Positions 35,798 to 64,000 are shown, counted from the first letter of the stretch. The stretch: DNA of 64,000 nt from Candidatus Multivoradales bacterium (GCA_965248925.1 CBDFLE010000005.1:2016001-2080000), one strand, 5' to 3'. A program made the numbers and translations. The notes: generated by a model not told the origin, from the letters alone.

Positions 35798-38700
35798 ATG
35801 CCCATCCGAGTCTCGTACCCTGGCGTCTACGTTCAAGAGATTCCCGGCGGCCAGCCGGTCACCGCCGGTGTTTCCACGGCCAGCACTGCTTTTATCGACT
35901 TCTTTTCCCGCGGACCGATGGAAAAGGCCAAGCAGGTGTTCAGCATGGCCGAGGTCAATCGCAGCTTCGGCGGTTTACATTTACGCAGTGAGGCCAGCTA
36001 CGGCCTCAAGCAGTACTTCTTGAACGGCGGCCAGGAGGCCTGGATCGTCCGCGCCACCGACGGCACCGCGATCAAAGCGCTGCTCGACGTCAAGGTCAAC
36101 ACTCCCGGCTTGGATGTCCGCTTTCAATGGGCAACCGATTCCGCCGACGCCGCCGACAAGGCACAGCAGGCCGCGAAGCGCGCCGCCGAAAAGGCCAAAG
36201 ATGCGCTGACCGCGCTGGCGGCCGCGGTGAACGATCAGCAACGCACCCAGGGTGGCGGCGACTTGCGCAGCGCCACCACCGAGTCCGCCGACGAAACCTA
36301 CAAGGCGACCGCCGCCACCCGAGCCGCCGCCGAGCAGGCCAAGGCATCCAGTGACGAGCTGGCCATCGCCATCGCCGCCTTGGCGGCCGCCTCCGGGCCG
36401 GTCGCCGATCGCACCGCCCAAGCCGCCGAGCACACCGCCCAGGCCGCCGCCGCCTCGAGCGATGCCGCCAAGACCACTCCGGCGGTGATCGCCGCCGCCC
36501 AGAAAGCGGTCGAGGTGGCCAAGAAGGGGCTCAGTGCGGGCCAGTCCTCGCGCACCGCGCAAACTGCCGCCAAAACCCTCGCCGACCTGCAAACCGCGGT
36601 CGACGCCGCCAAGGCGGCGATCGCCACGGTTACCGCCGAGGAGACCGCGGTTACCGACGCTGGTGACAACTTGGTCGCTAGCAAGGGTGCCGCTTACAAC
36701 GCCGCGGTCGCCGCCGAGGACGCGGTGGCGCAAGCCGATACCGCTGCTCGCGAAGCATTGAGCGTCGCCAAGACGGTCTACGAGCACCACAAAGCCGCCG
36801 GCAACGACGACGACGCCAAAGCCGCCAAGGAGGATGTCGACGCCGCTAGCGACAGCGAACAAATCACAACCCTGGCGACCGCCGCCAACGCCGCCGCCGA
36901 GGCTCAGCTTGACTCGCAAACGATCATGGAGACGGCCGACGCCACCGCTGCTGCGACCAAGGCCAAAGGCGCCGCGGACCAGGCCAAGTCAGTGATCGAC
37001 AAGGTCGAGACAATCGCCGCCAAGGGTCTCACGTCAGTGCTCACCATGGCCTCCGAGGCCGCCGACACCAGTGCCACGCTGGCGGTGAAAGAGGGTGATG
37101 GCACCGTCGGCGAGGCGGTCAAGGCGGCCAATAAGGAGATCCTCAAGGCCAATGCCGCCGCCAAGGCGGCATTGGTGGCCTGCAAGCTGACCTCCGACGA
37201 CGCTAAGGTCGCGGCCAGCTGCGTCGGCTCGGCAAAGGTCAACCTCGACGCTCGCGGCGCCATCGCCGGAGCCGAGAAAGCCGCCGCCGACACCATCGAG
37301 ACGTTGAAGGCCGCCAAAGTCATCACGGCGCAGCTCAACAAGGCCCTGATCCTTGCGCTCGATTCGACCAAGCCGGCCGTCGAGTCCGCCGCCGCCGCGA
37401 CGGCCGCGGGTGGCAATGCCGACCTCTCGATCAACGAAAAGATAAAGGCCGCGGCGGCTGCCGCCCAAGCGGCGCTCAACGCCGCCAACAACTGCGTCGC
37501 CGCTGCCGAAGCTGTCGAAAAAGCAGCCACCGAAGTGTCGAGAGTCGCTCTTCAGGCGACTACCGCTGCCGACCTGGCGGCACGGGCAGCCAAGGTTGCG
37601 GTCGCCGCCAACAAAGAGGCCAGTCAACCGCCGACCCTGCGCATCGCCGCCGCCAACGAGGGCATCTGGGGCGACAACATCCAGGTCGAGATCAAGGTCG
37701 ACGGGGCTAACTTCTCGCTGGTGGTCACCGAATACCTCACCGAGCGCGGCGTCACCCGCCAGGTGGGACAGGAGAATTACAGCAGCCTCAACCTGGAGAA
37801 GGGCGAGAACACCTACGCCATCCCGGTGGTCAACGACCAGAGCGATCTAGTGTCGCTCGACTACATTGGCCTGATGGTCTCGGGGGCCTACCCCGCCGAC
37901 ATCGATGGCGAGTTCCTCAACGGCGGCGATGATGGCGGCCACGCCGACGCCACCCAGCTGACCGGTGCCGACGGCGCCATGTCGGCGCTTGAGGATATCC
38001 AGCCCTATATCTTCAATCTGCTCAGCCTGCCTTCCGTAGCCAACATGCCGGCCGCCGAGGCCAGCGTGGCCACCGCCAATGCCCAGGTCTACTGCGGCGA
38101 GAAGCGAGCCTTTTACATTGTCGACATTCCGGAAATCGTCGACGATACCGACAAGATGCTCGAATGGGTCAACAGCTACGGCAACGCCCAGGCCTATTAC
38201 ATGGCGGTGTATTACCCTCGGTTGGTGATTCCCGATCCGCTGCAGGACTTCCGAGAACGCAATGTCGGTCCCAGTGGCACTTTGGCCGGCATCTACTCCC
38301 GCACCGACACCGCTCGCGGGGTGTGGAAAGCGCCAGCTGGAATCAACGCCGTGCTGCAAGGTGCCCAGGTGTCGTCCAAGGTCACCGACATTCAGAACGG
38401 GCTGCTCAATCCACGCGGCGTCAATGTGCTGCGGACCTTCCCCATCTACGGCAACATCAGCTGGGGAGCCCGCACACTGGCTGGTGCCGACGCACTGTCG
38501 AGCGAGTGGAAGTACATCAGTGTTCGCCGCTTGGTCAACTACATCGAGGAGAGCCTCTTCCAGAGCCTCAAATGGGCCGTCTTCGAGCCCAACAACGATG
38601 TGCTGTGGGCCAAGATCCGCTCGCAGATCGCCACTTTCCTCTCCAGCTTGTTCTCACAGGGTGCGTTCCAGGGCGCCGGCGAGGGCAGCGCCTACTTCGT

Positions 38701-38836
38701 GACCTGCGACGGCACCACGACCACGCCGGTCGACATCGAACTCGGCATGGTCAATATCGATGTCGGCGTTGCACCGGTCAAGCCGGCGGAATTCGTCGTC
38801 CTCAGAATGCAACAGATCGCTCAGGCCGCCGCCTGA
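35798..38836 (+). CDS. Contractile tail sheath protein with a ~500-aa Ala-rich insertion
   Basis: YPGVYVQE, YFLNGG..AWIVR, YYPRL, PSGTLAGIYSRTD..RGVWKAPAG, WGARTL, KYISVRR, WAVFEPN and GVAPVKPAEFVV. Confidence 0.95.
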   Translation: MPIRVSYPGVYVQEIPGGQPVTAGVSTASTAFIDFFSRGPMEKAKQVFSMAEVNRSFGGLHLRSEASYGLKQYFLNGGQEAWIVRATDGTAIKALLDVKVNTPGLDVRFQWATDSADAADKAQQAAKRAAEKAKDALTALAAAVNDQQRTQGGGDLRSATTESADETYKATAATRAAAEQAKASSDELAIAIAALAAASGPVADRTAQAAEHTAQAAAASSDAAKTTPAVIAAAQKAVEVAKKGLSAGQSSRTAQTAAKTLADLQTAVDAAKAAIATVTAEETAVTDAGDNLVASKGAAYNAAVAAEDAVAQADTAAREALSVAKTVYEHHKAAGNDDDAKAAKEDVDAASDSEQITTLATAANAAAEAQLDSQTIMETADATAAATKAKGAADQAKSVIDKVETIAAKGLTSVLTMASEAADTSATLAVKEGDGTVGEAVKAANKEILKANAAAKAALVACKLTSDDAKVAASCVGSAKVNLDARGAIAGAEKAAADTIETLKAAKVITAQLNKALILALDSTKPAVESAAAATAAGGNADLSINEKIKAAAAAAQAALNAANNCVAAAEAVEKAATEVSRVALQATTAADLAARAAKVAVAANKEASQPPTLRIAAANEGIWGDNIQVEIKVDGANFSLVVTEYLTERGVTRQVGQENYSSLNLEKGENTYAIPVVNDQSDLVSLDYIGLMVSGAYPADIDGEFLNGGDDGGHADATQLTGADGAMSALEDIQPYIFNLLSLPSVANMPAAEASVATANAQVYCGEKRAFYIVDIPEIVDDTDKMLEWVNSYGNAQAYYMAVYYPRLVIPDPLQDFRERNVGPSGTLAGIYSRTDTARGVWKAPAGINAVLQGAQVSSKVTDIQNGLLNPRGVNVLRTFPIYGNISWGARTLAGADALSSEWKYISVRRLVNYIEESLFQSLKWAVFEPNNDVLWAKIRSQIATFLSSLFSQGAFQGAGEGSAYFVTCDGTTTTPVDIELGMVNIDVGVAPVKPAEFVVLRMQQIAQAAA

Positions 38837-38870
38837 TCTCGGATCCAAGAAAACCAAGGAGGTTTTATCA

Positions 38871-39455
38871 ATGGGTACTCCCAAGAACCTACGTTCGACC
38901 ATCATGGATCCGCTGCTGAACTTCAAGTTCATTGTCAGCTGGGGCGAGGCCGGTTCGGCGAAATACGAAGTAGTCGCCGGGGTGAGCAAGTTCGGCCCGC
39001 TGTCGCGCAACACGGAAGTTGCCGAATACCGCGAAGGTGCCGATCCCTTTGTCACTCGTAAGATCCCAGGGCAGGTGAAATACGACGACATCAACCTCGA
39101 GCGCGGCATTATTCTCGATGTCGCCTTCGAGCAGTGGGCCAATAAGGTTTGGTACTACGAGCAGTCCGACGCCCTGGCCTCCAACCAGGTGTCGCTGATC
39201 GACTTCCGCAAGGACGTGCAGATTCAGCTCTGCAACCAGGCCGGCCAGATCGTCAACCAATACCTGATCTTCAATTGTTGGCCCACCAAATACCAGGCGG
39301 CGCCCGATCTCGACGCTTCGGCTGGCAACACGGTGGCGCTCGAAACCTTGACCTTGGCCAACGAAGGCTGGGTCCGTGACGACACCTACAAGGCCGTCAA
39401 GTATCCGACCTACGCCTTGCCGGATTCGCCAACAGGTGGCTTGCCACCCTCCTGA
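38871..39455 (+). CDS. Tail tube protein (T4 gp19 / Afp1-5-like)
   Basis: AAGGAGG RBS; DPLLNFKF, EYREG, KIPG..Y..I.LERG, CWPTKY and VALETLTL..EG. Confidence 0.93.
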   Translation: MGTPKNLRSTIMDPLLNFKFIVSWGEAGSAKYEVVAGVSKFGPLSRNTEVAEYREGADPFVTRKIPGQVKYDDINLERGIILDVAFEQWANKVWYYEQSDALASNQVSLIDFRKDVQIQLCNQAGQIVNQYLIFNCWPTKYQAAPDLDASAGNTVALETLTLANEGWVRDDTYKAVKYPTYALPDSPTGGLPPS

Positions 39456-39460
39456 TCCAT

Positions 39461-40207
39461 ATGCACGCCCTCACCGCCCAAGAAGCGCTGGCGGCTTGGG
39501 AAAGAGGCCAGCGACTCGACCCTCTGGGCCGATCGCTGGCCTTTCTTTCGGTCGCCCTGCCGGCCGTCGAGCGCCTACGCATTCTGCAGCTGCCGGTAGG
39601 GCAGCGCGACGCTCTGCTACTGCGCTTGCGTTTCCGCACTTTTGGGCCGGGTCTGCGAGGTTCGGTCAACTGTCCATCCTGCAACGTACCGCTGGAGTTC
39701 GCAGTCGATCTGCGTAGCTACGACGCGATCGGCCACCTACAACGAGAGATCGGCGCCCGCGAGCTGGTCGTCGAGCCCTACCGAGTGGTCTTCCGCCTAC
39801 CCAACAGTGAGGACTTTTCCGCCATCGCCGAGGGCTGCGTCGACGCCGAGAGTGGCCGCGAAGTCCTGCTCGACCGCTGCCTGCTGCACGCCTTCGAAGG
39901 CAATCAGGAAATCGCGCCGCAGCAGCTCCCCGCCGAAGTTTTGGCTCAGGTCGCCGCTGAAATGGAGAGTCTCGATCCTCTCGCCGAGCTACCGTTGGCG
40001 ATCGATTGCGGCCGTTGCGATCACTCCTCCCTGGTGCTCTTCGACATCGGCCAGTTTCTTTGGCATGACATAGCCGCCTCCGCCAGAAGCCTGCTCGAAG
40101 AAGTCCACGCCTTGGCCACCGCCTACGGCTGGGGCGAAGAGCAGATTCTCAACCTGAGCGGGGCGCGCCGCCGCTTTTACATCGAAAAGATCCCAGCCGG
40201 GAGCTGA
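39461..40207 (+). CDS. eCIS baseplate-hub / tail-assembly-chaperone-like protein with two CxxC motifs
   Basis: LPVGQRD..LL.LR..TFG, CPSC, CGRC and C-terminal EVHALATAYGW.E.QILNL..RR.FY. Confidence 0.75.
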   Translation: MHALTAQEALAAWERGQRLDPLGRSLAFLSVALPAVERLRILQLPVGQRDALLLRLRFRTFGPGLRGSVNCPSCNVPLEFAVDLRSYDAIGHLQREIGARELVVEPYRVVFRLPNSEDFSAIAEGCVDAESGREVLLDRCLLHAFEGNQEIAPQQLPAEVLAQVAAEMESLDPLAELPLAIDCGRCDHSSLVLFDIGQFLWHDIAASARSLLEEVHALATAYGWGEEQILNLSGARRRFYIEKIPAGS

Positions 40208-40212
40208 AAGCA

Positions 40213-46625
<6,413 letters not shown>

Positions 46626-46629
<4 letters not shown>

Positions 46630-49900: not shown

Positions 49901-50223
49901 AAATCGATCTAGAAATCGACCACTTGCGCCTTCCGACCGCCGCCGGCTTGCGCGGCGAGGATCTGGCCACCGCTATCGAGAGCGAGCTCGACCGGCTGAG
50001 CGAAATCTACGGTTTGCCCGCTTATGGTAGCAATGCAGGCGGGGTCGATATTGACCTGGCGTCGTTCCCGATCAACCCTCACGCTTCCATCGACCAACTC
50101 GGCGCCTCGATCGCCCGCTCGCTGATGCAGGGTTTGCATCAGAAGAGCGGCCGGGTTCCGCGAGAACTCGACAGAGGCCCTGACGCGCCCCACGATACTT
50201 CCTCCAACGAGGTAGTGCGATGA
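49897..50223 (+). CDS. Small eCIS-associated protein
   Basis: ATGA overlaps at both ends; IDLEIDHLRL..IESELDRL pattern. Confidence 0.7.
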   Translation: MKIDLEIDHLRLPTAAGLRGEDLATAIESELDRLSEIYGLPAYGSNAGGVDIDLASFPINPHASIDQLGASIARSLMQGLHQKSGRVPRELDRGPDAPHDTSSNEVVR

Positions 50224-50936: not shown

Positions 50937-51212
50937 ATGATCAAGAAATCTAGTCGCTACCACGGCTTCGACCACCATCGGCATCTAACTCCCGGTGGTC
51001 ATGAGATCCTCTATCTCGAACGTCGCTTCATTCCGCGATTGCAGACCTCCGGCAAGACCACCAACGCTCAAAGCGAACGCCTCGACCTGATCGCCGATAG
51101 AACCTTGGGCAATCCGCAGCTCTACTGGCGCCTCTGCGACGCCAACGAGGAGACCAATCCGTTCGTGCTCTCCGAACGATCCGGGCGCACCCTCAAGCTA
51201 CCCAACCTATGA
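50937..51212 (+). CDS. LysM-like small baseplate protein
   Basis: SRY, YLERRFIP and RLDLIA..LGNP.LYWRLCDAN. Confidence 0.82.
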   Translation: MIKKSSRYHGFDHHRHLTPGGHEILYLERRFIPRLQTSGKTTNAQSERLDLIADRTLGNPQLYWRLCDANEETNPFVLSERSGRTLKLPNL

Positions 51213-51225
51213 GCGGCAACCCTCC

Positions 51226-52416: not shown

Positions 52417-52425
52417 GAATCACCA

Positions 52426-53277
52426 ATGGCCGACAACCACCTGGTCGACGTGCTCAACGATCCGCAGTGGCGCCGCGATGGGCGCTATTTCGGCAAATAC
52501 CGCGGCATCGTGCAGGACAATAAGGACCCCGACAAACTCGGCCGCATCTTGGCGACGGTGCCGGCGATTTCCGCCATGGCGAAAAACTGGGCCCTACCCT
52601 GCTCGCCCTACGCCGGCAAGGATGTCGGCCTATACACCATCCCACCGGTCGGCGCCAAAGTATGGATCGAATTCGAAGGCGGTGACCCGACGTTTCCAAT
52701 TTGGAGTGGCTGCTTCTGGCAAAAAGACGAGCCGCCGACCGAGATCGGCACCAACGCCGACGATCCGTCGCAGGTCAAGATTCTCAAGACTCGAGTGGCC
52801 AAAGTATGGATCGACGACACCGATCAGAAAGGGCAGATGGTAGTGCAGTTCAACGACTCCACCGTCGATCAGCCGATCACCGTCACCATGACCATCGACT
52901 CCACCGGCATCAAGGTTGAATGCGCGGGCGAGAACACCAGCACGGTGATCCAAACCCCCGACGACATCTCCACCGACAGCCAAACCCTGGCCACCACCAC
53001 CGCCAAGGACACCACCCTGACCGTGGAGCAGAATCTCAAAGCGACGGTGAGCCAAGACCTCACCATGCAAGCCGATGGCAAAGCCGATCTGAAGGCCACC
53101 GGTAACTTGACTTTGGAGGGGGACCAGGTGGCCGCCACCGCCCAACAAGCGATCGATCTCAAAGGCATGAACGCCACCTTGGAGGCCACCTCGGCGGTAA
53201 CCGCCAAGGGAGCCACCGCCGAGGTCAATGGCAGTGGCACCACCACCATCAAAGGTGGCATGGTTAATATCAACTAG
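52426..53277 (+). CDS. gp5/VgrG-like spike (OB-fold plus beta-helix)
   Basis: YFGKYRG.V.DN.DP..GR, WALPC.PYAG and VWIEFEGGD..PIW.G, with a Thr-rich beta-repeat tail ending IKGGMVNIN. Confidence 0.9.
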   Translation: MADNHLVDVLNDPQWRRDGRYFGKYRGIVQDNKDPDKLGRILATVPAISAMAKNWALPCSPYAGKDVGLYTIPPVGAKVWIEFEGGDPTFPIWSGCFWQKDEPPTEIGTNADDPSQVKILKTRVAKVWIDDTDQKGQMVVQFNDSTVDQPITVTMTIDSTGIKVECAGENTSTVIQTPDDISTDSQTLATTTAKDTTLTVEQNLKATVSQDLTMQADGKADLKATGNLTLEGDQVAATAQQAIDLKGMNATLEATSAVTAKGATAEVNGSGTTTIKGGMVNIN

Positions 53278-53285
53278 CGAGGACG

Positions 53286-53678
53286 ATGGTGAAGAGCAGC
53301 GATCTCGAGGTAGGTTTTCCGTTCCAGCTCGACACCCGTGGCCGGGCCTTCGATCCGGGCTACGAGGATCACGTCAAGCAATTGATCGAGCTGGTGTTGT
53401 TCACCACCCCCGGCGAGCGGGTCAACCGGCCAGATTTTGGCTGCGGTCTGCTGGAGCTGGTGTTCTCCCCGGAAACCGAGCAGGAAACCACCGTCACCCG
53501 GCATTTGGTGCAAGCGTCGCTGCAACGCTGGCTCGCCGAAGTGATCTCGGTGCGGGAAGTTGAAATCGATGTTAACGACACTAGACTCAATATCCGCATT
53601 GCATACCAACTGATCGACTTCGAAAATCAAGAGCAAGTAGCGACCTTCGAGTTTCGGGACCTGCCATGGGAGATCTGA
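53286..53678 (+). CDS. GPW/gp25 baseplate protein (Afp9-like)
   Basis: FPF and IELVLFT.PGERVNRPDFGCGL. Confidence 0.93.
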   Translation: MVKSSDLEVGFPFQLDTRGRAFDPGYEDHVKQLIELVLFTTPGERVNRPDFGCGLLELVFSPETEQETTVTRHLVQASLQRWLAEVISVREVEIDVNDTRLNIRIAYQLIDFENQEQVATFEFRDLPWEI

Positions 53679-56266
53679 ACCACAGCGATCCGCGTTTCCG
53701 CGATCAACGGCGCAAAGCGGTGGCGGCGAGTCCAACTCTGGTCGGCCTCGATCACATCGACGTCCGGCACCTCGATACCAGCACCAGCAGTGGCACAGAT
53801 TCCGCCAACGAACTGTGGGATCTGAACTTGCACTTCCTGCCCCCCAGCGAGCAGCGCCAGGACCAGCAGTTCGCGGCTTTACCCAGCCTCGTGGAAGCCG
53901 ACAACATCCGCATCGAGTTCGGCGAGAATGCCGACCCGGCGATCCATGTCCGCCAGATCATGCCGCTGGCAGATCATGTTCTGCGGGTGCGGGTAGCCCG
54001 CAACGTCAACTCGGCGACCCCCCCCGCCCACCTGCCCGCCGACCTCCATCTCGCGGCCGGCCACTTGCCGATCTACCGCTTGCGCCTGGTCGACCTGCCG
54101 ACCGTTGACCGCTTTTTTGATCAGGCCCTATTCGCTTTTCGCGACGGCACCACCGATCTCGGCCTGCCCTCTGAGCTGCCCGAGCAGCGACCCACGTTGC
54201 GGCTGCCCGAGATCGACTACCTGTCGAAGGACTACGAGAGCTTTCGCCAATTGCTGCTCGACCGCCTCAAGCGCGAGGTACCGAGCTGGCACGAGCGCAA
54301 CCCCGCCGATCTCGGGGTCACCCTGGTCGAACTGCTGGCCTACGCCGGCGACTATCTGAGCTACTACCAAGACGCGGTCTCGAGCGAAGCCTACATCGCC
54401 ACCGCCCGGCAGCGCATTTCGATCCGTCGCCACGCCCGACTGGTCGATTACCGCATGCACGAAGGGGTCAATGCCCGCTGTTGGGTGCAGATCAAGATAC
54501 TGCCCACCGAGGCCGAGTCTGGCAGCGCGGCCAGCGCCGCGCCAGAGCCCTTTGAGCTACCCGCCGGCACTGAAGTGCTGACCTCCTGCGGCCAAGTGCC
54601 AGCGATCGTGCCGCGGCTGTCGCGCGAGGAACGCAAGGCTCGGGCCGCTAGGCCGTTGGTATTTCAAACCCTATTCCCCGTCCGCCTGCACCCGCTGCAC
54701 AACCGGATAGAGATCTACACCTGGGGCGCCACCACCTACCGCCTGCGAGCTGGTGACACCCGCGCCGCGCTGGTTGGCCACTTGCCTCATTTGCACCGCG
54801 GCGATGTGCTGATCTTCGAGCGGATGCGTCTCGCTGAGACCCTGGGCGGCAACCTGGACGACCTGCCGACATCGCAGCCGGTGCGGCTGGCCCACCACCC
54901 GCGCCTATCCCTCGATCCAACCCTCGGAGATGACGGCCAGACGGTGCCGGTCACCGAGATCGAGTGGCTGGCCGAGGATGGGTTGGACCATGATCTAGAA
55001 GTCTCAGTACGGATCGGAGGCAAGGTGCGACTGCTGGCCTGCGCGCGGGGCAACAACGTCCTGGTCGACCACGGGGAAAGCCGCTATGAGGTGCTACCGC
55101 AGGTGCCCGCCAACCAACGCTACGGGCCGCGGCTGCGCCAACTCGGCCTCACCCGCCGAGTACCCTATGACTCCGAACGCGCTTCGCGCCTACCGGCCCA
55201 CGGCAACTTGGAACAGGACCCTCGCCAAGCGCTGCCGGCGCTGGAACTCTACGAACTGGCGCCGGTAGAGTTCGAGCGTTACCCCGACGGCGTCCCCTTG
55301 GAGGTTCTGGGCCGCACTCAGCGACAGGTCTGGCGGGTTCGTCATGACTTGCTGGCCAGTGATCGCTTCGGCCAAGACCTGGTCGTCGAGACTGACGATC
55401 GGGGCTACGCCCAGCTCCGCTTTGGTGACGATCGCCAAGGGCTCAGTCCCTATCCCGGCAGCCGCCTGCAGGCCGTCTACCGAGTTGGCTCGGGGCCGGC
55501 TGGCAACGTGGGCGCCTATGCCCTGCGTCATCTGGTGATTGCCAGCAGTGAGTTGGAGCGTTGCGCCGACCTCGGGTTGCGCCTCATCGAGGCTCGCAAC
55601 CAGCTCGCCGGCCATGGTGGGTTGGAGTCCGAGAACAGCGAGCTAGCGCGACACTACGCACCGCAAGCCTTGCACAGCGGTAGGCTCCGCCGCTGTGTGA
55701 CCGAGGATGACTATGCGCGGGTCGCCGAGCGCCATCCCGAAGTCGAGCGGGCGGTCTCCAGACTACATTGGAATGGCACCTCCTGGGTGGCCTTTATCTA
55801 CGTCCAACGCCCGGCATTGCGCACCCTCGACAGCCACTTGAAGCGCCGCCTGCTACGCTTCTTCGCTCCCTTCTTGCTGGCCGACTGTGAGGTCGAGATA
55901 CGCTCTCCGCGATGGGTGCCCCTCGATCTCTGTTTCTTGGTACACCCTCAGGGCTCGGCCCCGCAAGCCAGCATGCGCCAGCGCCTGGGCACTCGCGTCG
56001 AGCAGGGAGAGTTGCCCTTTCTGGCGCCGGACTACTTCACCTTCGGCAAACCGCTCTACCTGAGTGAGTTGATCACTCAGATCATGGAGTTGCCGGAAGT
56101 CAGCAGCGTCGAGGCCAAGGTGTTCAAGCGCTGGGGCGAGAGTTCGCAGGGGGAGCTCGAGCAGGGTGAAATTTCCCTCGCCCCGCTGGAAATCGCCGTG
56201 CTGCGCAACGATCCCTCGGCGCCGCATCTGGGTTCGATACAGGTACGCATTGAGGAGGAAGCATGA
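53666..56266 (+). CDS. Baseplate J-like protein 1 (Afp11-like)
   Basis: IDYLSKDYESFRQLLLD, DLGVTLVELLAY.GD.LSYYQD, LRFGD..G, YRVG.G..GNV and RCVT..DY. Confidence 0.88.
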   Translation: MGDLNHSDPRFRDQRRKAVAASPTLVGLDHIDVRHLDTSTSSGTDSANELWDLNLHFLPPSEQRQDQQFAALPSLVEADNIRIEFGENADPAIHVRQIMPLADHVLRVRVARNVNSATPPAHLPADLHLAAGHLPIYRLRLVDLPTVDRFFDQALFAFRDGTTDLGLPSELPEQRPTLRLPEIDYLSKDYESFRQLLLDRLKREVPSWHERNPADLGVTLVELLAYAGDYLSYYQDAVSSEAYIATARQRISIRRHARLVDYRMHEGVNARCWVQIKILPTEAESGSAASAAPEPFELPAGTEVLTSCGQVPAIVPRLSREERKARAARPLVFQTLFPVRLHPLHNRIEIYTWGATTYRLRAGDTRAALVGHLPHLHRGDVLIFERMRLAETLGGNLDDLPTSQPVRLAHHPRLSLDPTLGDDGQTVPVTEIEWLAEDGLDHDLEVSVRIGGKVRLLACARGNNVLVDHGESRYEVLPQVPANQRYGPRLRQLGLTRRVPYDSERASRLPAHGNLEQDPRQALPALELYELAPVEFERYPDGVPLEVLGRTQRQVWRVRHDLLASDRFGQDLVVETDDRGYAQLRFGDDRQGLSPYPGSRLQAVYRVGSGPAGNVGAYALRHLVIASSELERCADLGLRLIEARNQLAGHGGLESENSELARHYAPQALHSGRLRRCVTEDDYARVAERHPEVERAVSRLHWNGTSWVAFIYVQRPALRTLDSHLKRRLLRFFAPFLLADCEVEIRSPRWVPLDLCFLVHPQGSAPQASMRQRLGTRVEQGELPFLAPDYFTFGKPLYLSELITQIMELPEVSSVEAKVFKRWGESSQGELEQGEISLAPLEIAVLRNDPSAPHLGSIQVRIEEEA

Positions 56267-59200
56267 GGGAGCAGCAACCACCGCCCCTCCCCGCCGCGGC
56301 CACCGCGCCGAGCCCCGACTCGCGGTTGGCTAACCCACCAGGGCAGCGTCAGCTGATTCACCGCATCGGCGACTACTACAGCTTCTACGACTCCATGTTG
56401 CACTGCCTGGCCCGCCAGGGCCGGCATCCGTTGACCACCACCGTGCCTTGGGTTGAAGACGCCGAGGACCAAAAAACTCGTGCCGAGCAGCCCCGCAGCG
56501 TCCTTGGCGAACAACGCACCGCCACTGGCAAGGGCCGCATCTGGCTCAACCTGTCGCAGGCCGACAATTGGATCCTCGGCTTACTCAGGTCGTGGGCGAC
56601 GATCGGCGAGATTCTCGCTTTCTATCAAGAGCGGCTGATCAACGAAGGCTACTTGCGCACCGCCCGCGAGCGGCGTTCGGTACACGAGCTGGCGCGATTG
56701 CTCGACTACCGGCCGCGGCCGGCGGTGGCCGGTGCCACCGAGTTGGCCTTCGACACCACCGATGTCGAGGGCTTGCCGCGAGACATCGCACTGGTCGCCA
56801 GCACCCCGGTCGACAGTGTGCCCCCCGAGGGCGCCGAACCGCAGAGCTTCGAGACCTCCGGCCCACTAGTGGCCCGCGCCGACTGGAATCGGCTGGGGGA
56901 AGCCGCGCCGGCTCGCCCCCTACCCTTGGAACTTGACAACGGCGCCAACCGCCTAGGTCTAGCCAACCAAGCGCGGTGGCCCGATATCGGTTCGGGGATA
57001 CTGATCCGCGGCCGGCAAAACAACGAGGAGCGCCTCTTCTACCGCCCGGTCGCGGCGCTCGAAGATCCCGCCGCGAAGCTTCCGGGCAAGGATCTGGTGT
57101 GGAGCGAGGCCGTCGAACTACAGCCCGCGGAACCGCCTCTCGGCGACCTAGAGGTCTACGCCCTGCGCCAAGAGCTGCGCCTCTTCGGCTATGCCGCGCC
57201 ACTGTGGCCAGAGCAATCGCTCGCAGTGCGCCGCCGCTATCGCGACCTGCAAGGCGGCTTGCGGGTGCTCCAAGACGGTAGCTGGCGCGCGACCCACGGC
57301 AGTCTGCCGGAGGCCGAAATCCGCTGCCTGGTCTACAGCCCCGACGGACACCTCTTCGCCGGCACCAGCGGCCAAGGCATCTGGCGCCTGAGCGCGGGTG
57401 AGAAAAGCTGGCAAGGTCCCTCCCGTGGTCTCGAATTGGGCGACATCTGCGCTCTGACCGCCACCGACGACGGCTTGCTGATCGCCGGCACGGCAACCGG
57501 CGGAGTTTTTCACTCGACCGACGGCGGCGATGTTTGGACCCAACTCACCGGCCGCGCCCTGGGCCGCGCCCGCTGGACCCTGGTGCGCCGTTCGCGACGC
57601 CTCGACAGCTTGCCGCAGACGCCGGTGCGAGCCCTCCTATCACTGCCCACCGGCGAGGGCGCTGCCAAAGGCGCCTGGCTCTTCGCCGGCACCGACAGCG
57701 GCCTCTACCGTTCGACCGACCTGGCCAACACCTGGATGCCGTCCAACCGCGGCTTCCCGGCAGTCGACTCGGGCACCGGCGAGACGTCGACCGCGGTCAC
57801 CGCCCTGATCGTCAATCCGCTCAGCGGCGAACTCTTCGCCGCCACTTCCGCTGGCGTCTTCTCCTCCACCGACCGCGGTCGGCGTTGGCAGGCGATCAAT
57901 CTTGGTCTGCCGGAGATGGATCTGTTCAGCGAGCTGCTACCGCGGGGAGTGCGCGACTTGGCCTTGCACTACGATCGGCGGCGGCGGACTTCGACCCTCT
58001 TCGCGGCCACCACCCAGGGAATCTACCGCTCCCGCGACCGCGGCAACAACTGGCAGCTGGCCAGCAGTGGGCTCGAGATCGAGCGTGACGAGCTGCCCGA
58101 GATCACCTGCCTGGCCCTGGAGCGCAACAAAGTCACCGTCACCTCTCGCCTCTTCGCCGCCACTGCTGAACGGGTCTGGTGCTCACTTGACGAAGGGGAG
58201 AGCTGGCGGCCGGCGTCCCTCGACGCCTTACCCGGCGGCCGCGCGCTGGCGGCCAGCAGCAGCCGCGCGACGCTGGCCGCGGCTACCCCTTTCGGCGGTT
58301 TCGCCAACAATCAATGGCCGAACTTCTTTCTCTCCCGCGGCCACATCGATCTGGAACGTGAAATCCCTGCCCTGCCCGCCGACGGCTGGGTGATCCTGGT
58401 GCCCGATGCTGACCAACCGCAACCACCACCGGTGGGCATCTTCCCGCTGCTCAAGGTCAGCACCGTGCGGCGCACCGACTTCACCCTCAACACCAAGATC
58501 ACCCGCCTGCAAGTAGACCCCGACCCGGCTTTGCGGCGCTACGATCTGCGCCGCACCCGAGTGCTTGTGCATAGCGAACCGCTTCTGCTGCAGACGGGTA
58601 ACCGGGTCGATCCCAGAGACACCCTGGCCGCCCTCTGCGCCAGGCTCCGGCAGATGCCCGCCGATCGGCCAATCCTGGCTTGCGCCCTGCACTCTCCGGG
58701 CAACCATGACTCGCCAGTGCACGAAGCGGCGCAGAGCCGCGCCGAGCCGCTGGCAAACCAGGCCGCCTGGCAGTATCTTTCGAGCTCCGCCGCGCAGCTG
58801 TTGGCATCTCTGGAGAAGAGTGCCCAGACCGGCTTATTAACCCTCGCCAGCGAGCCCACCAGTAGCGCCAAGGCAGGTCAAGCGGTCGCCGTTTCGAGCG
58901 ATTCGCTGCAAGTCTTCGCCAACGTCATAAACGCCACCGAAGGGGTCACCATCCACCGCGAGGTGCTGGGCAGCGGCAACGCCGCGCAAACCCTGCAACA
59001 GTTCCCGTTAGTCGAGATACCAGCCTTTCTGCGCGGCTCGCCGGATCCCCGATCGACGGTCGAGATCCGGGTCGGCGATCAGCGCTGGAGAGAGGTGCCA
59101 AGGCTCCTCGATCAACCGCCTGAGCGCCGGGTCTATGAGCTGCGCCGCGATCACCAGGGCTTCGCCACCGTAGTCTTTGGCGATGGTGCCCACGGCGCCC

Positions 59201-60045
59201 GCCTGCCCACCGGCCAAGGCAACGTGGTGGCGACCTACCGCTTTGGCACCAGCCAACGGCCGATTCCAGCAGCCAGCGTGCGGTTGATGCACAGCCGCCC
59301 GCTCGGCCTGGCGGCGGTCACCAATCCGCGACCAGGAACCCCAGGCGCCGCCGCCGAGCCCGCCGACCAAGTGCGCAGCCAGGCGCCCAGCAGTGTGCGG
59401 ATATTTGGTCGCATCGTTTCGTTACGCGACTATGAGGACTTCGCCGCCGGCTACCCCGGCGTGGTCAAAGTACGGGCGCAACGACTGTCCGCCGCCGGCC
59501 AACCGATGGTTCACCTCACCCTGGCCACCGCCGATGCCGAGCACCGCCCACCCCGAGGTAGTTTGTTCAAGTCGCAGCTGTTGGCCGCAATCGAGGCCAT
59601 TAGGGCCGCCGCCGAGCCGGTCGAGATCGCCTCTTTCAAGCCGGTCGGGCTGATCATTGAAGCCCGGATCTTGCTCCGCCAGGGCCTCGAATTCGCAGAC
59701 TTCGAACCCCATCTGCGAGCCCTCCTGGAGCAGCGCTTCTCTTTCGAGCACAGTGACTTCGGTCGCACCATCAGTCCCGCTGAAGCCATCATTACCTTGC
59801 AAGAGGTCGACGGCGTGGCGGCGGTGGATCTGGATGTTTTTCGCCGCGATGAGCCAGCAGCAGACACGGCGAAGAGGGACCCGGAGCCGCCGCGCAACGT
59901 GGTCCCCCGCGAAGCATATTGGGACCCCATCACAGCCGAGTCGCGGCCCGCTGAGCTGGTTCTCTTCCAGCGTTGCCACCTCTACGCCGCCAAGGACGCT
60001 TTGCAGCCAGAGACCCGCAGTAGCCCACCGGAGGCCACACGATGA
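56263..60045 (+). CDS. Baseplate J-like protein 2 with an inserted Asp-box beta-propeller
   Basis: FYQERLINEGYLRTARERRSV.EL, FGDG.HGARLPTG..NV.A.YR and RIVSLRDYEDF, with internal S.D.G..W repeats. Confidence 0.88.
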   Translation: MREQQPPPLPAAATAPSPDSRLANPPGQRQLIHRIGDYYSFYDSMLHCLARQGRHPLTTTVPWVEDAEDQKTRAEQPRSVLGEQRTATGKGRIWLNLSQADNWILGLLRSWATIGEILAFYQERLINEGYLRTARERRSVHELARLLDYRPRPAVAGATELAFDTTDVEGLPRDIALVASTPVDSVPPEGAEPQSFETSGPLVARADWNRLGEAAPARPLPLELDNGANRLGLANQARWPDIGSGILIRGRQNNEERLFYRPVAALEDPAAKLPGKDLVWSEAVELQPAEPPLGDLEVYALRQELRLFGYAAPLWPEQSLAVRRRYRDLQGGLRVLQDGSWRATHGSLPEAEIRCLVYSPDGHLFAGTSGQGIWRLSAGEKSWQGPSRGLELGDICALTATDDGLLIAGTATGGVFHSTDGGDVWTQLTGRALGRARWTLVRRSRRLDSLPQTPVRALLSLPTGEGAAKGAWLFAGTDSGLYRSTDLANTWMPSNRGFPAVDSGTGETSTAVTALIVNPLSGELFAATSAGVFSSTDRGRRWQAINLGLPEMDLFSELLPRGVRDLALHYDRRRRTSTLFAATTQGIYRSRDRGNNWQLASSGLEIERDELPEITCLALERNKVTVTSRLFAATAERVWCSLDEGESWRPASLDALPGGRALAASSSRATLAAATPFGGFANNQWPNFFLSRGHIDLEREIPALPADGWVILVPDADQPQPPPVGIFPLLKVSTVRRTDFTLNTKITRLQVDPDPALRRYDLRRTRVLVHSEPLLLQTGNRVDPRDTLAALCARLRQMPADRPILACALHSPGNHDSPVHEAAQSRAEPLANQAAWQYLSSSAAQLLASLEKSAQTGLLTLASEPTSSAKAGQAVAVSSDSLQVFANVINATEGVTIHREVLGSGNAAQTLQQFPLVEIPAFLRGSPDPRSTVEIRVGDQRWREVPRLLDQPPERRVYELRRDHQGFATVVFGDGAHGARLPTGQGNVVATYRFGTSQRPIPAASVRLMHSRPLGLAAVTNPRPGTPGAAAEPADQVRSQAPSSVRIFGRIVSLRDYEDFAAGYPGVVKVRAQRLSAAGQPMVHLTLATADAEHRPPRGSLFKSQLLAAIEAIRAAAEPVEIASFKPVGLIIEARILLRQGLEFADFEPHLRALLEQRFSFEHSDFGRTISPAEAIITLQEVDGVAAVDLDVFRRDEPAADTAKRDPEPPRNVVPREAYWDPITAESRPAELVLFQRCHLYAAKDALQPETRSSPPEATR

Positions 60046-62138
60046 ATACCCATTCTCGCCTCTACGACCTGCTGCCGGCCTATGTCCGCTTCCAAGACCA
60101 GCAGCGGCGCGATCCGGAGATGGGCATCGCCCCTCTCGAAGCTCTGATCCGCGCGCTCGAAGCCTCGTTCGACGCCATCGAAGAGAACATCGGTACCCTC
60201 TACGACGGCTGGTTCATCGAGACCTGCGAGGATTGGCGGATCCCCTACATCGCCGATCTGCTCGGTGTTCGCGGTCTCGAAGACATCGGCGCCTTGATTC
60301 CCAGCCAGCGTACGCGGGTGGCCAACACCATCGCTTACCGGCGACGCAAGGGGACCCCGGCGGTGCTCGGCCAGGCGGCGCGAGACAACACCGGCTGGCC
60401 CTGCCACATCAAGGTCTTTCGCGACTTCTTGGCGATCACCCAGGCGGTGTCCAGCCCGCGCCTCGACCGCGGTCGTTGGGTCGATCTGCGGCAGCGTCAA
60501 GCGTTGGCCCGGCTGCGCACACCCTTCGATCCCGTGGCCCGCACGGTCGACCTGCGTAGCGGTCCACCGCGGGTCGCTGCCGAGGCCAGCGGCGGCTACC
60601 ATCCCTATCGCCTGGGGCTGACCTTCTGGCGCCTCTCGAGCTACCCCATGCGGCAGCTGCAAGCACGACCCAGCCGCCGCGATCCGGGCCACTTCTACCG
60701 CTGCCATCCGGCGGCGGTAGATTCGCCCCTGTTCAATCCGCCGCGCACCCCCACGGGCACCCCCCGCGACCCGACTCGCTACCTGCCGCTGCGGGTCAAC
60801 CGCGGCCTGCTGAGAGCCGAACTCAGCGCCGCGCGGCTACCCGCCGGCGAGCGACCCACGGTCCGGATCCAGGTGCAAGACAGCCCCTCCGCGGCCCTAG
60901 CAACGGTGCCGAACTCGCGCATCGCGGTCGGCGACCTGAGCACCTGGCAAGTGCCGAAGGCGGAGCTTATGATTGACCCGGAGAACGGCCGCCTGGCCTT
61001 TGCCGAGCCCAACCCAGAGCGCATCGTCAAGGTTGACTGCTGCTTTGGCATGGCGGCCGATCTCGGCGGTGGCCCCTATCCGCGACCCAGCGTGCGCGGG
61101 CCGGTGGAGCCGCAGACCTGGCAGGCGATCATCGATCGAGCCCAGCTCTCTGACGATCTGCCGGAGCGGCAGCAAGTGGAGCGTTTCTCCTCACTGCGGC
61201 AAGCGATCGACGCCTGGCGGGCAGCCGGCAAACCCGCGGCAGCGCTTCTCCGGATCCATGACAGCGACCTGCATCCGATCGGCGATATAGCGCTTGAGCT
61301 ACCCAAGGACTGCCAGCTGACGCTGCGCGCCGAAGAGCGGTGCTGGCCACTACTGGTCGGCAAGCTCGAAATCAGCGGCGACGCGGGCAGCCGTTTGCGC
61401 CTCGATGGCTTGGTCCTCGAAGGCAAAGTACAGCTCGGTGACAAGGTCTCGCTGGAGATCGAACATTGCACCCTGAAACGAGACAGCCGGGCCGCCGATC
61501 AGCCAACTAGTGATCTCTCGGACACCGTGCTTGAGCGCCCTCGCGACGGGGTCGACACGAGGGTCTCCATCCGCCACTCAAGGATCCTCGGCGAGCTGCG
61601 TCTGAGCGCCGAGCTGAACCACCTGGAAATCGCCGACAGCGTACTCGGTAGCGTTGGCGGCGTGGCGATCAGCGGTCCGGACCAGACCTACGGCCCGGCT
61701 ACCACCCTCGAACGTTGCACCTTGCTGGGCACCGTCAAGTTGCACCAGCTGCTGGCAGCCACCAATACCCTGTTCACCGCGGCGGTAAAAATCGAGCGCT
61801 GGCGCGACGGCCAGATCCACTTTTGCTACCTCCCTCACGGTTCCCGAGTACCACCGCGGCAGCAGTCCATGGACGGACCACCGCTGATCACCGGCAGCGC
61901 CCACACCTCACCCTCGGGGGCGGTTTCAGCCAGCGCGTTCATCTCCTTGACCTACGGCCATCCAGCTTTTGCTCAGCTCAGCCTGCAATGTGGGGGCATC
62001 GACCGAGGAGGTGAGCAAGGCAACGAGATTGGCGCCTTCCACGGCCAACGCTTGGGCAACCGGCTCGCCAACCTGAACGCCGCCCTCGACGAGTTTTTAC
62101 CTAGCGGGTTCACCGCCCGAATAGCTTTCGCGACCTAG
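60042..62138 (+). CDS. eCIS baseplate/tail protein (P2 gpI / Afp12-like)
   Basis: LYDLLPA..R..D, LYD.WFIETC..W.IPYI.DLLG, VANTIAYRRRKGT and F.SL.YG.P...QL..E.GAF. Confidence 0.85.
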   Translation: MNTHSRLYDLLPAYVRFQDQQRRDPEMGIAPLEALIRALEASFDAIEENIGTLYDGWFIETCEDWRIPYIADLLGVRGLEDIGALIPSQRTRVANTIAYRRRKGTPAVLGQAARDNTGWPCHIKVFRDFLAITQAVSSPRLDRGRWVDLRQRQALARLRTPFDPVARTVDLRSGPPRVAAEASGGYHPYRLGLTFWRLSSYPMRQLQARPSRRDPGHFYRCHPAAVDSPLFNPPRTPTGTPRDPTRYLPLRVNRGLLRAELSAARLPAGERPTVRIQVQDSPSAALATVPNSRIAVGDLSTWQVPKAELMIDPENGRLAFAEPNPERIVKVDCCFGMAADLGGGPYPRPSVRGPVEPQTWQAIIDRAQLSDDLPERQQVERFSSLRQAIDAWRAAGKPAAALLRIHDSDLHPIGDIALELPKDCQLTLRAEERCWPLLVGKLEISGDAGSRLRLDGLVLEGKVQLGDKVSLEIEHCTLKRDSRAADQPTSDLSDTVLERPRDGVDTRVSIRHSRILGELRLSAELNHLEIADSVLGSVGGVAISGPDQTYGPATTLERCTLLGTVKLHQLLAATNTLFTAAVKIERWRDGQIHFCYLPHGSRVPPRQQSMDGPPLITGSAHTSPSGAVSASAFISLTYGHPAFAQLSLQCGGIDRGGEQGNEIGAFHGQRLGNRLANLNAALDEFLPSGFTARIAFAT

Positions 62139-62151
62139 GAGCCCAAGCCCG

Positions 62152-64000
62152 ATGAAAGGCAGTTCGCAAGGAGATTTCTCACGCCTCCGCTTCGACAGCG
62201 GCAAGCACTACAGCGCGGTCCACATGCAGCAAGGGCGGGTGCAGCTCGATGCTGATTGGAACGAGCAGGTCGACATTCTCAACCACCGCCTGCGGACCGA
62301 GGCGCTGGACGTCATCGGCCAACACGGCGCGCCGGCGGACCACCCCGGTTTCGGCATCGAAGCCGAATGGGGCTTGGAGGTCGGCGCCAAGAGGGGCATC
62401 GTCACCGTGGGCGATCGCGGCGGCTGTCGCTGGCCCCCAGCGATAGCCGGGGACACCTTCACCCTCGAGTTGCGGCTCTTGGCGCAGGGCCCCGGCGTGC
62501 TCTACAGCCGCTGGGTCTCGATCGACGGCAAACTCGAGTACGTCGAAGCACTGATTCTGGGACCAGACGGCAGACTGAAACTCGACCGACCCGGCCAAGA
62601 CGAACTGCTCAGCGAGCCTGTCGACTTCGGCAGCGCGCCGGCGCAGCTGGCGGTGGCCTGTCACGGCTCCGAAGTCACCCTCTATTTCGCCGGCCAACCA
62701 GTCGCTCAGGCTGGTGGTGGCGCGGCCGCGGCCACACTTCAAAACAACACCCTGCTACTCGGCTCCGGCTATGCCGACCAGCCGCCCGAGCCAGCTCTCG
62801 AAGGGCTGCTCTTCGAGGTTCGCCTGTGGGGCTACCGTCTACCCGACGAACTCCTCCTCGGCCACCTCGCCGAACCGCTGGACAGCGCTGGGCTCCTCGG
62901 CCGCTGGTACTTCTCGGCCGCCAGTGGTCAGCGCATCGTCGACCAAAGCAGCAACCACCACGATGCCCGGATCCGCCGCGGAGGAGCCCCGCGGCGGCGC
63001 CCCTATCTGTCGATCACTGCCGGCCGCTACTACGTCGACGGACTGATGTGCGAGAACGACCAAGGGCGAGGATTCGACCAACAGCCTAACCATCCGGCCA
63101 CTCGGCAGCCGCTGCTGGCCGCGGACGATCGAGCCGAGCAGCAGCTGATCTACCTCGAAGTCTGGGAGCGCGAGGTGTCGGCGATCGAAGATCCGCAGCT
63201 GCGCGAAGTCGCCCTCGAAGGACTCACCACCACCACCCGTTCGCAGGTGGTGGCCCAGGTCAAGACCCTGCCGGTCACCGCCAAGGCTGAGCGCCGTACC
63301 CTGATCGCCGAGGTCGCCGAATGGGCCGAGTTTGTGGCCGCGCAGCAACAGCGCGGCCGACTGCGGGCCCGCCTTCAGCCGACCCCGAGTTCAGCGATCG
63401 ACAACCTGCTCTACCGCGTCGAAATCCACCACGGCACGGTTCACGCCAGCGCCACGGTAGAGAAGAAGTCAGTGGAGGAACAGCCGGCGGAGGACGAGTC
63501 CTCCTCGCTGAAGTTGGACAGCTGGGACGATTCCTGGGCCGCCGGACAGACCATCGAGATTGTCGCCGGCGATAGCGCAGCTCTGCGGCTGCGCATCACC
63601 GCCGTCGACGCCGCCACTCGGACTCTCGAAATCGGCGCCAAGCTGGTGGCAAATTTCGGCGACGGGCGATTGGCGGTCGAACGCCTGGCAACTTTCAAGT
63701 GGTCGCGGTCGAATGGCGCCCAAAGCTACCCCGTCGCCCACATGGCGAGCGAAGTCGCCACCCTGACTCCTCGTTTCGAAGGCAGCCTGCAAGATCTGAA
63801 GCCGGGGCGCTGGGTCGAGTTGGTCGACGATGCCTCGGTGCTCAGCGGCCAGCCCCGATCGCTACTGCAAGTGGCCGAGGTCGACACCATGCGGCGAGAA
63901 GTGATCTTCGCCTCTGCCCTGGAAGAGAGCACCGACAGCAGCGATTTGCAGCACCCCCTGCTGCGCGCTTGGGATCATGGAGGCCAAGGGCAAGAGATAC
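62152..64000 (+). CDS. DUF6519-domain tail-fibre/baseplate protein, 3' truncated by the window and absent from the supplied ORF track
   Basis: Manual translation gives MKGSSQGDFSRLRFDSGKHYSAVHMQQGRVQLDADWNEQ, GRYYVDGLMCEN, YLEVWEREV..IEDP.L.EVAL, NLLYRVEIH and FKWSRSNG. No in-frame stop was seen. Confidence 0.88.
   Translation, partial: MKGSSQGDFSRLRFDSGKHYSAVHMQQGRVQLDADWNEQVDILNHRLRTEALDVIGQHGAPADHPGFGIEAEWGLEVGAKRGIVTVGDRGGCRWPPAIAGDTFTLELRLLAQGPGVLYSRWVSIDGKLEYVEALILGPDGRLKLDRPGQDELLSEPVDFGSAPAQLAVACHGSEVTLYFAGQPVAQAGGGAAAATLQNNTLLLGSGYADQPPEPALEGLLFEVRLWGYRLPDELLLGHLAEPLDSAGLLGRWYFSAASGQRIVDQSSNHHDARIRRGGAPRRRPYLSITAGRYYVDGLMCENDQGRGFDQQPNHPATRQPLLAADDRAEQQLIYLEVWEREVSAIEDPQLREVALEGLTTTTRSQVVAQVKTLPVTAKAERRTLIAEVAEWAEFVAAQQQRGRLRARLQPTPSSAIDNLLYRVEIHHGTVHASATVEKKSVEEQPAEDESSSLKLDSWDDSWAAGQTIEIVAGDSAALRLRITAVDAATRTLEIGAKLVANFGDGRLAVERLATFKWSRSNGAQSYPVAHMASEVATLTPRFEGSLQDLKPGRWVELVDDASVLSGQPRSLLQVAEVDTMRREVIFASALEESTDSSDLQHPLLRAWDHGGQGQEI

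Follow-up and report, generated by a model that had tools for sequence, protein, structure and literature searches.

Contractile injection systems (CIS) are commonly sorted into released particles, the extracellular CIS (eCIS), and the membrane-anchored type VI secretion system (T6SS). The locus described here raises the question of which mode is used by an eCIS-type tail that is encoded beside a T6SS-type membrane complex. It lies in a stretch of 64,000 nucleotides, hereafter the window, from Candidatus Multivoradales bacterium (GCA_965248925.1, CBDFLE010000005.1:2016001-2080000; G000:C5:2016001-2080000 in our numbering), the source genome being 7.98 Mb in size, in six contigs and 96.9% complete. 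A densely spaced row of genes of the Afp/PVC type begins at position 35798 on the + strand and continues past the window end, forming part of an island of ~44 kb in all that is mostly covered by the window. The eCIS part is complete (sheath, tube, cap, ATPase, hub, spike, gp25, a baseplate pair, a P2-I-like protein and a DUF6519 fibre) and is convergent with a membrane-module row encoding TssJ-, TssL- and TssM-like proteins, located past the window end in L001 (G000:C5:2078001-2098000; L001 coordinates are converted to the window scale by adding 62000). Both eCIS marker domains, eCIS_core (DUF4157, E 5.4e-33) and DUF6519 (E 8.6e-57), are present. We are highly confident of this descriptive account, namely that the island consists of a contractile injection system of the Afp/PVC (eCIS) lineage and an adjoining TssJLM-like row.

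The host is a soil-type bacterium belonging to the Acidobacteriota, class Thermoanaerobaculia by NCBI labels, and the closest relatives of its sheath come from Thermoanaerobaculia bins. A sequence-only reading of the window had proposed a lineage-specific contractile injection machine with lectin-type modules, which agrees with the BNR propeller, the Kelch propeller and the LamG-like stretch described below. It had also stated that no characterised eCIS is known from this host group, and none was found in the accessible eCIS texts, from which 'Acidobacteri' and 'Thermoanaerobaculia' are absent. Its further proposal of a systematic decoration of the outward-facing parts is not supported, since the cap is ordinary, the giant protein stands in tape-measure position and the insert of the fibre is characteristic of its family. 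Of greater importance is that the row is coupled, in a conserved manner, to a membrane complex of T6SS type in genomes lacking a T6SS tail. Our preferred reading, to which we assign a probability of roughly 45%, is that the eCIS-lineage tail fires while docked to a co-opted TssJLM-like envelope complex, in a T6SS-like mode.

Conserved coupling of the eCIS and TssJLM-like rows

The sequence-only reading had pointed to the downstream contig as the place to look for fibre, PAAR and DUF4157 genes, and these are present, the fibre gene running across the window end and the other two just beyond it. No pseudogenisation was seen there: the operon is unbroken and the DUF6519 gene is intact at 1149 aa in the genome. 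The membrane row is on the - strand, its stops and starts overlapping, and encodes a FadL-like outer-membrane barrel (L001:16881-18227), a lipoprotein with six TIG domains (L001:14569-16884), a 159-aa lipoprotein with a lipobox and a TssJ fold (L001:14093-14572), TssL (DotU, L001:13316-14038, E 2.5e-8, with a C-terminal anchor at 201-219) and the IcmF-like TssM (L001:8802-13319, 1505 aa; IcmF-related_N, PF14331, E 2e-46), the DotU and IcmF-related_N matches both exceeding their Pfam thresholds. TssM starts ~5.2 kb past the fibre-gene end, and its two membrane helices (12-30 and 418-436) flank a Walker A motif at 108; such a layout of DotU and IcmF-related proteins is typical of TssL and TssM. 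The 1505-aa protein did not match the later TssM domains of Pfam. The 159-aa lipoprotein, whose family has 1181 representatives at E<=0.001, has no Pfam match in the copy of this island and no PDB match by profile, and T6SS-SciN matched weakly in 2 of 70 family members (best E 0.035). Its model (predicted local distance difference test, pLDDT, 89.9) found TssJ in all ten of the best PDB folds (prob 1.00, target TM-score 0.60-0.67), namely 3zhn, 6ixh, 4a1r, 3rx9 and the TssJ chains of 4y7o, with IglE at ranks 11 and 13. The protein is thus assigned as TssJ by comparison of the predicted fold alone.

The row resembles the canonical T6SS membrane complex (6ixh, 3rx9, 3zhn, 4y7o) in the TssJ fold, the DotU family, IcmF-related_N, the Walker A motif and membrane topology, and relatives of its TssJ, TssL and TssM genes belong to T6SS loci with TssC in Acidobacteriota, Nitrospinota, Gemmatimonadota and further groups. 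In contrast to such loci, genes for a FadL-like protein and a TIG lipoprotein are added here, and the rest of the canonical T6SS (TssB/TssC sheath, Hcp tube, TssK) was not found in the source genome: there is one PF14331 match, and no match genome-wide to VipB (TssC), T6SS_VasE (TssK) or T6SS_HCP (Hcp). A type IVB secretion system (Dot/Icm) or a hidden T6SS beyond the FadL gene was considered and rejected, because only a methyltransferase, a DEAD helicase and housekeeping genes are located there.

The same architecture was identified in eight other uncultured genomes, seven of which have Thermoanaerobaculia labels or kinship. Judged from these sequences, uncultured Thermoanaerobaculia share the decorated architecture as a trait of their clade, and the window is no isolated case. 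The sequence-only reading had named catalogued or characterised loci with this set of insertions, or a broken operon, as evidence against its view; close loci of this kind do exist, but all are uncharacterised metagenome bins and the operon is intact. In 6 of the 9 genomes (G000, G015, G005, G020, G002 and G053) the FadL-like, TIG-lipoprotein, TssJ, TssL and TssM row adjoins the locus, with TssM and the eCIS genes on one contig and at most ~7 kb between TssM and the fibre gene; G004 had no TssM in the 20 kb examined. The gene order around the module is reshuffled in G005, G013 and G053, the FadL and TIG genes of G013 being directly upstream of the sheath gene, yet the module itself persists. 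VipB/TssC was detected in none of 5 tested clade relatives. In G005 (L109:7427-10720), the eCIS ATPase gene is located outside the tail operon and adjoins tssL, followed by the DUF4157 gene, so that both are inside the membrane module.

Two samples were compared, one of the family (24 genomes including G000) and one of the class (121 genomes, with G000 as the sole family member). In the family sample, PF14331 was found in 10 genomes and VipB in 4, all four TssM-positive; the genomes with TssM and without VipB were G000, G007, G013, G015, G020 and G161, the first five of which have a propeller-type eCIS. In the class sample, PF14331 was found in 13 genomes, Pvc16_N in 18 (G044 counted) and VipB in 11, all TssM-positive and mostly with the two genes within ~10 kb of each other on one contig. 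The only class genomes with TssM and without VipB were G000 and G053, and in both the TssM contig also has a cap gene, at a distance of 27-30 kb. G053 belongs to a different family within the order and has the whole arrangement on one contig.

TssM loci were collected by a scan from a 5-sequence alignment (a single-protein scan gave 2 loci only). TssC was present in the flanks of 27 of them, none eCIS-linked, and TIG and FadL matches occurred in only 1 of 80, from G005. In a FastTree phylogeny of 33 full-length TssM proteins (duplicate contigs, partial matches and frames <1100 aa excluded), a single clade (support 100) holds the 8 eCIS-linked sequences together with 2 from Thermoanaerobaculia of unknown context, and 15 of 15 T6SS-linked sequences are on the other side; the tree has a midpoint root only, which does not give the direction of change. 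As far as this tree goes, a single origin of the eCIS-linked TssM group is shown. The TssM open frames, ~1400-1640 aa, are stop-free in 8 of 8 eCIS-linked genomes, and the Walker A motif is invariant in the 5 aligned.

Full-length TssM-type relatives without TssC in their 10-kb flanks were also found at L118 (G037, Kapaibacterium, Bacteroidota) and at L144, L147 and L152 (Pseudomonadota), with no VipB or sheath_1C match anywhere in the G037 genome. These four loci may be further unusual TssJLM contexts.

Enlarged tail components

The claimed ENLARGEMENTS stands for the helical insert of the sheath, the propeller of the second baseplate protein and the LamG-like stretch of the fibre, but not for the cap or the giant repeat protein. 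To these the present analysis adds an enlarged P2-I-like protein, a terminal Kelch propeller of the fibre, and the PAAR, DUF4157 and TssJLM genes past the window.

The sheath (35798..38836, +, 1012 aa) matches Phage_sheath_1C at residues 902-1006 only (E 9.1e-13), and among solved structures it is closest to sheaths of the eCIS lineage, which are 354-692 aa long, the top one (8bky, E 9e-57) presumably being the Streptomyces coelicolor CIS sheath. Since the relatives, with the exception of L003, align only with residues 1-94 and 614-1008, the Ala-rich, all-helical residues 95-613 (519 aa; 36080..37636, +), where they have an alignment gap, were assigned as an insert. It is common to 21 of 5.8 billion clustered proteins, the window's own included; 19 of these are 990-1173 aa and one is 791 aa, and all are nameless or called 'hypothetical' or 'sheath'. 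For the insert, AlphaFold2 with these proteins as the alignment gave 11 long helices (pLDDT 84.5, predicted template modelling score 0.70), for which Foldseek found no PDB match at E<=0.001 but generic helical bundles only. The helical insert noticed in the sequence alone is thus borne out by the alignment and the model. In G002 (L012:515-4705), two consecutive sheath genes with open frames of 852 and 541 aa were observed, the first with an insert unlike that of the window.

The two baseplate-J-type proteins are encoded at 53666..56266 (+, 866 aa; TIGR02243, E 1.4e-57) and 56263..60045 (+, 1260 aa; TIGR02243 at residues 780-1191, with a Baseplate_J match). The second has an insert at about residues 215-880 (56905..58902, +), in which the predicted beta-propeller is a real signal, with BNR, Sortilin-Vps10 and F510_1955 matches at ~416-658. 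This insert is retained at 31-45% identity in G013, G007, G015, G020, G002, G004, G005 and G053; it is lacking in a further six genomes from the family or order, the open frames being 900-955 aa and the ends alone matching. The P2-I-like protein in TssG position (60042..62138, +), also enlarged at 698 aa, matches Tail_P2_I at residues 34-109 only, and its full-length relatives within the clade have open frames of 735-1211 aa.

The DUF6519 (eBAP5) fibre of 1149 aa (62152..64000, +, on to window-equivalent 65601; L001:152-3601) has DUF6519 matches in three stretches (E 8.6e-57) and a Kelch propeller head at residues 849-1094. A LamG-like insert had been read in this protein, and a Laminin_G_3 stretch is seen at 166-231, but the match is weak (20.8-22.3 bits against a Pfam cut-off of 27.6) and the site is an ordinary one for DUF6519: a ~200-aa insertion in the same place has been reported for eBAP5 (PMC12923769, accessible text), so that the insert is a family trait. 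The same text lists DUF6519 as an anchor of tail fibres whose binding heads vary, and notes a 'shoulders-like' feature in eBAP3-5. The window fibre shares with the eBAP5 fibres the N-terminal DUF6519, the inserted domain and the variable C-terminal head, and differs in its Kelch head, 'Kelch' being absent from the main text of that catalogue, the supplements of which may list it.

The giant disordered protein (40213..46629, +, 2138 aa), ~56% of whose residues are P, S, T, A or Q, had been taken as an outward decoration. Its place, a gap flanked by the gp51-like and cap genes, is filled by one gene in 50 of 50 related loci holding both; the gap-filling gene is ~240-1654 aa, mostly 240-400, across these loci. 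The ends of 39 of the 50 gap proteins were aligned together with the window's, leaving out L013 (split frame) and the ten shortest at the list end. By eye, the C-termini of 38 of the 40 rows combine the core x-I-G-x-[IVL]-x-[VIL] with a subsequent tail SL-x-[DE]-YL, and D-[YF]-L-x-R-L recurs as an N-terminal motif in most rows; among 14 C-termini aligned separately, I, G and one L are invariant. Both conserved ends are present in the giant protein, including the C-terminal IG...SLxDYL motif, which argues for an internal component. These comparisons identify it as the lineage's tape-measure-position (lumen) protein, greatly inflated, rather than a surface adhesin. Since the gene is positioned between the tube and cap genes and the protein has conserved ends and a highly variable middle, it may act as a tape measure that sets tail length. 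The gap-filling proteins of the clade are 2138, 920 and 1654 aa, with two contig-cut ones of at least 1203 and at least 1097 aa. A restriction of long tape-measure-position proteins to genomes with TssM was considered and rejected on account of L010, where the protein is 1210 aa and the genome has no PF14331 match.

The inflation of the giant protein appears to be due to recent internal duplications. A 344-aa unit is duplicated in tandem (40981..43104, +; residues 257-620 and 601-964, 95%, the DNA copies being 99% alike), residues 983-1247 and 1662-1926 (91%) and 1309-1504 and 1553-1748 (89%) form further pairs, and Tandem Repeats Finder detected (GCCAACGAG) x 21, a 9-nt unit encoding (ANE)n, at 44725..44917 (+, 99% matches). 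The short-read contigs (one sample) break at repeats and leave 41170-41877 uncovered, and no joints or indels were seen in them. A 1033-nt contig of the 344-aa unit had 1.8-3.8 times the flank depth in four runs of that sample, a weak hint of a real duplication. As a giant, mostly disordered, tape-measure-related effector (Tme) is known in the CIS of Streptomyces davawensis (PMC11126660, accessible text), a cargo role for the giant protein would be a live alternative by analogy. The two are alike in being the largest gene product of the cluster, mostly disordered, and proposed for a lumen or ejected role. Tme, in the text accessible, has DUF4157, membrane helices and a C-terminal endonuclease, none of which was detected in the giant protein by Pfam or hydropathy, whereas the giant protein has ends in common with the 240-400-aa proteins of ordinary loci.

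Docked, released, self-directed or residual

In the docked machine, the particle would be built in the cytoplasm on a baseplate docked to an envelope station composed of the TssJLM-like complex, the FadL-like barrel and the TIG lipoprotein. Docking would take place via the clade-specific enlarged periphery, i.e. the second-baseplate propeller, the long P2-I-like protein and the DUF6519 fibre; these baseplate-rim enlargements are candidates because they are clade-specific and co-occur with the membrane module. The fibre would roughly take the place held by TssK in T6SS. The tail, still capped, ATPase-assisted and measured in the eCIS manner, would be fired outward through the envelope into a neighbouring cell, T6SS fashion. 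If the giant protein sets length, ordinary lineage members would have tails several times shorter than this one, and the tape-measure-position proteins of the clade, all long (920-2138 aa), would suit long, cell-spanning tails. More tentatively still, the island may represent a new CIS class, in which i) an acidobacterial T6SS lost its tail, ii) its TssJLM was taken over by an eCIS-lineage tail, iii) FadL-like and TIG proteins were added, iv) the enlarged periphery and fibre came to serve as TssK, and v) hyper-expanded tape-measure-position proteins gave rise to cell-spanning tails.

Several observations weigh against docking. No TssK-like adaptor or contact linking the baseplate to TssL/TssM was found, docking being purely inferred. 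The lectin-type heads (Kelch, LamG-like) and the BNR propeller fit outside targets better than the cytoplasmic membrane face, and the cap, ATPase and tape-measure-position protein are eCIS traits. The fibre of G002 (704-aa open frame) has no Kelch part, and no head domain is universal in the clade. G013 and G007 have the two parts on separate short contigs, the ends of which hide the context, and in G161 a 15-kb TssM contig is without eCIS genes or TssC. All the relatives come from metagenome bins and, being kin, do not count as independent samples. As to the long tail, the 1210-aa protein of L010 occurs in a genome without a PF14331 match, and likeness to a tape measure was seen neither in Pfam, in which 10 members or parts had no family, nor in the PDB, in which the C-terminal profile had no match. 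In the literature accessible, a typical Afp14 is called absent from lineage II and Streptomyces CIS, the latter being homogeneous at ~230 nm despite this absence.

Some of these points would suit an ordinary eCIS that is released and binds glycan-coated targets by its enlarged fibre and baseplate, the TssJLM/FadL/TIG row being separate or auxiliary (envelope passage, release). Every hallmark of such a particle is present (cap, AAA+ ATPase, DUF4157, DUF6519 fibre, PAAR), DUF6519 is a catalogued tail-fibre anchor, and BNR, Kelch and LamG-like domains are typical binding folds. Release leaves unexplained, however, why an intact TssJLM is kept beside the eCIS across two families without a T6SS tail and why the eCIS-linked TssM proteins form a separate clade, and no lysis genes were seen from the fibre gene to the methyltransferase beyond FadL. 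Given the adjoining TssJ/TssL/TssM module, a purely free-floating, glycan-seeking particle is less likely than first assumed, and we regard a released eCIS as less likely than a docked one.

We give little credit to a cytoplasmic contractile system acting on its producer in regulated cell death or development, as in Streptomyces, towards which the closest solved sheath (8bky, E 9e-57), presumably that of Streptomyces coelicolor, would point. Systems of the Streptomyces type need the membrane protein CisA for firing (PMC12237407, accessible text), but in the accessible descriptions their clusters are without a conventional tail fibre, whereas the locus here has a fibre and PAAR, and the host is a diderm whose module includes an outer-membrane barrel and lipoproteins, as would suit a structure that spans the envelope. 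That the row is a decaying remnant of a tail-less T6SS, next to the eCIS by an accident of one ancestral arrangement, is improbable: canonical T6SS loci with closely related TssJ/L/M do occur in the same family and class, and one arrangement could pass to all kin, but the TssM frames are intact in all eight eCIS-linked genomes with Walker A invariant in the five compared, TssJ and TssL are likewise kept, and the module persists where the surrounding order is reshuffled.

Remaining genes and relation to known systems

A single sheath gene and a single gp19-type (PF06841) tube gene are present in the locus, and by domain matches and lengths there is nothing unusual in the size of the tube, hub, spike or gp25, both as first read. 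The tube protein (38760..39455, +; Phage_T4_gp19, E 7e-36) probably starts at ~38859, its relatives aligning only from residue 34-49 on. The next gene (39461..40207, +) encodes a 248-aa protein of baseplate hub type (T4_baseplate, PF12322; phrog_150 'baseplate hub') found in 71 of 80 related loci; a role as a second tube was ruled out (BLASTP against the tube E 16). The cap (46626..47921, +, 431 aa) has Pvc16_N at residues 11-205 (E 4.8e-30). It had been called enlarged, but 22 of 50 related loci with a cap match, from several phyla and including Paraburkholderia, Dyella and alphaproteobacteria, reach residue 407 or beyond over a similar length, so that by this comparison 431 aa is the lineage norm. 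The cap and the gp51-like protein had no match among PDB sequences. The Afp15-like AAA+ ATPase (47921..49900, +, 659 aa; AAA E 4e-25) has a WHD domain and a Walker A motif at residue 451. It is followed by a small conserved protein (49888..50223, +, 111 aa) with homologs in L003 and G005 and no family match in Pfam or PHROG, a 232-aa tube-like protein (50220..50918, +; CIS_tube E 0.0017, below cut-off) found in 31 of 80 related loci, and a 91-aa baseplate wedge-like protein (50937..51212, +; phrog_7145 'baseplate wedge subunit', E 1.8e-7). The hub (51226..52416, +, 396 aa) is gpD/VgrG-related (Phage_GPD weak; VgrG_rel E 8.7e-9), the spike (52426..53277, +, 283 aa) has the Phage_base_V OB domain (E 6.2e-25), and the gp25 wedge protein (53286..53678, +) matches GPW_gp25 (E 1.2e-17).

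Past the window, a DUF3368 gene and two small familyless genes (L001:4057-5594) lie between the fibre and pentapeptide-repeat genes and could be a toxin-antitoxin pair or cargo helpers. The gene for the 665-aa pentapeptide-repeat protein (L001:5591-7588, -) immediately follows the DUF4157 gene, and its product is a candidate for a cargo. The DUF4157 gene (L001:7604-8554, -; eCIS_core E 5.4e-33) is separated from tssM by the PAAR gene (L001:8406-8792, +), and its co-transcription with tssM was dropped because this opposite-strand gene stands between them. Upstream, a histidine kinase and response regulator and an extracytoplasmic function (ECF) sigma factor with a FecR-like partner are encoded at 28438-32040, 4-7 kb before the sheath gene, and are possible regulators of the island. 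A 1008-aa protein with a match to the middle domain of hydrazine synthase alpha (HZS_alpha, E 3e-12) is encoded at 24309-27335. Elsewhere in the genome, 117-130 kb before the window, a second PAAR (G000:C5:1884485-1884736) and a second Phage_sheath_1C match (1899590-1899874, in a 378-aa frame) were found ~15 kb apart and may belong to another tail-like cluster or a prophage; there is only one Pvc16_N match genome-wide.

The tail resembles lineage II eCIS/CIS (8bky, 7adz, 7b5h, 6j0b, 6rao) in the sheath, gp19 tube, Pvc16_N cap, AAA+ ATPase, gp25, two baseplate-J-type proteins, hub, spike, DUF4157 and PAAR, and the C-terminal domains of the solved sheaths align with the window sheath (E 9e-57 to 4e-22). 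It differs from them in its 1012-aa sheath (354-692 aa in the solved systems) with a private helical insert, in the propeller of the second baseplate protein, in the 2138-aa tape-measure-position protein and in the adjoining TssJLM. In the accessible literature, eCIS-type parts in an anchored, contact-dependent or intracellular mode are described for T6SS subtype iv (Aureispira, Amoebophilus), the haloarchaeal T6SS and the thylakoid-anchored CIS (tCIS), and proteins of the baseplate periphery or fibres are suspected of taking part in the anchoring. According to these texts their anchors are lineage-specific, the haloarchaeal T6SS having its own and the Aureispira system being stated to have no TssJLM homologs, whereas the candidate anchor here is TssJLM itself. 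No TssJLM-eCIS hybrid locus is described in the eCIS literature covered, which did not extend to supplementary tables, and the catalogue of PMC12923769 may list such loci.

At least one major eCIS catalogue excluded such loci by rule. In Geller et al. 2021, as far as the accessible text goes, putative eCIS operons with T6SS clusters of orthologous groups (COGs; e.g. TssM, COG3523) within 10 kb were removed, and the present island fails this filter, TssM being ~5.2 kb after the fibre gene and thus <10 kb away. The tape-measure-position family, at 240-2138 aa with fixed ends, is a natural series on tail-length control in lineage II, and the coupling gives a direct test of baseplate docking to TssJLM without TssK. 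If the docked reading is true, this would be the first sign of a T6SS membrane complex serving a different tail, and if the island does represent a new class, the strict eCIS/T6SS divide and the filters derived from it would conceal a whole group of hybrids.

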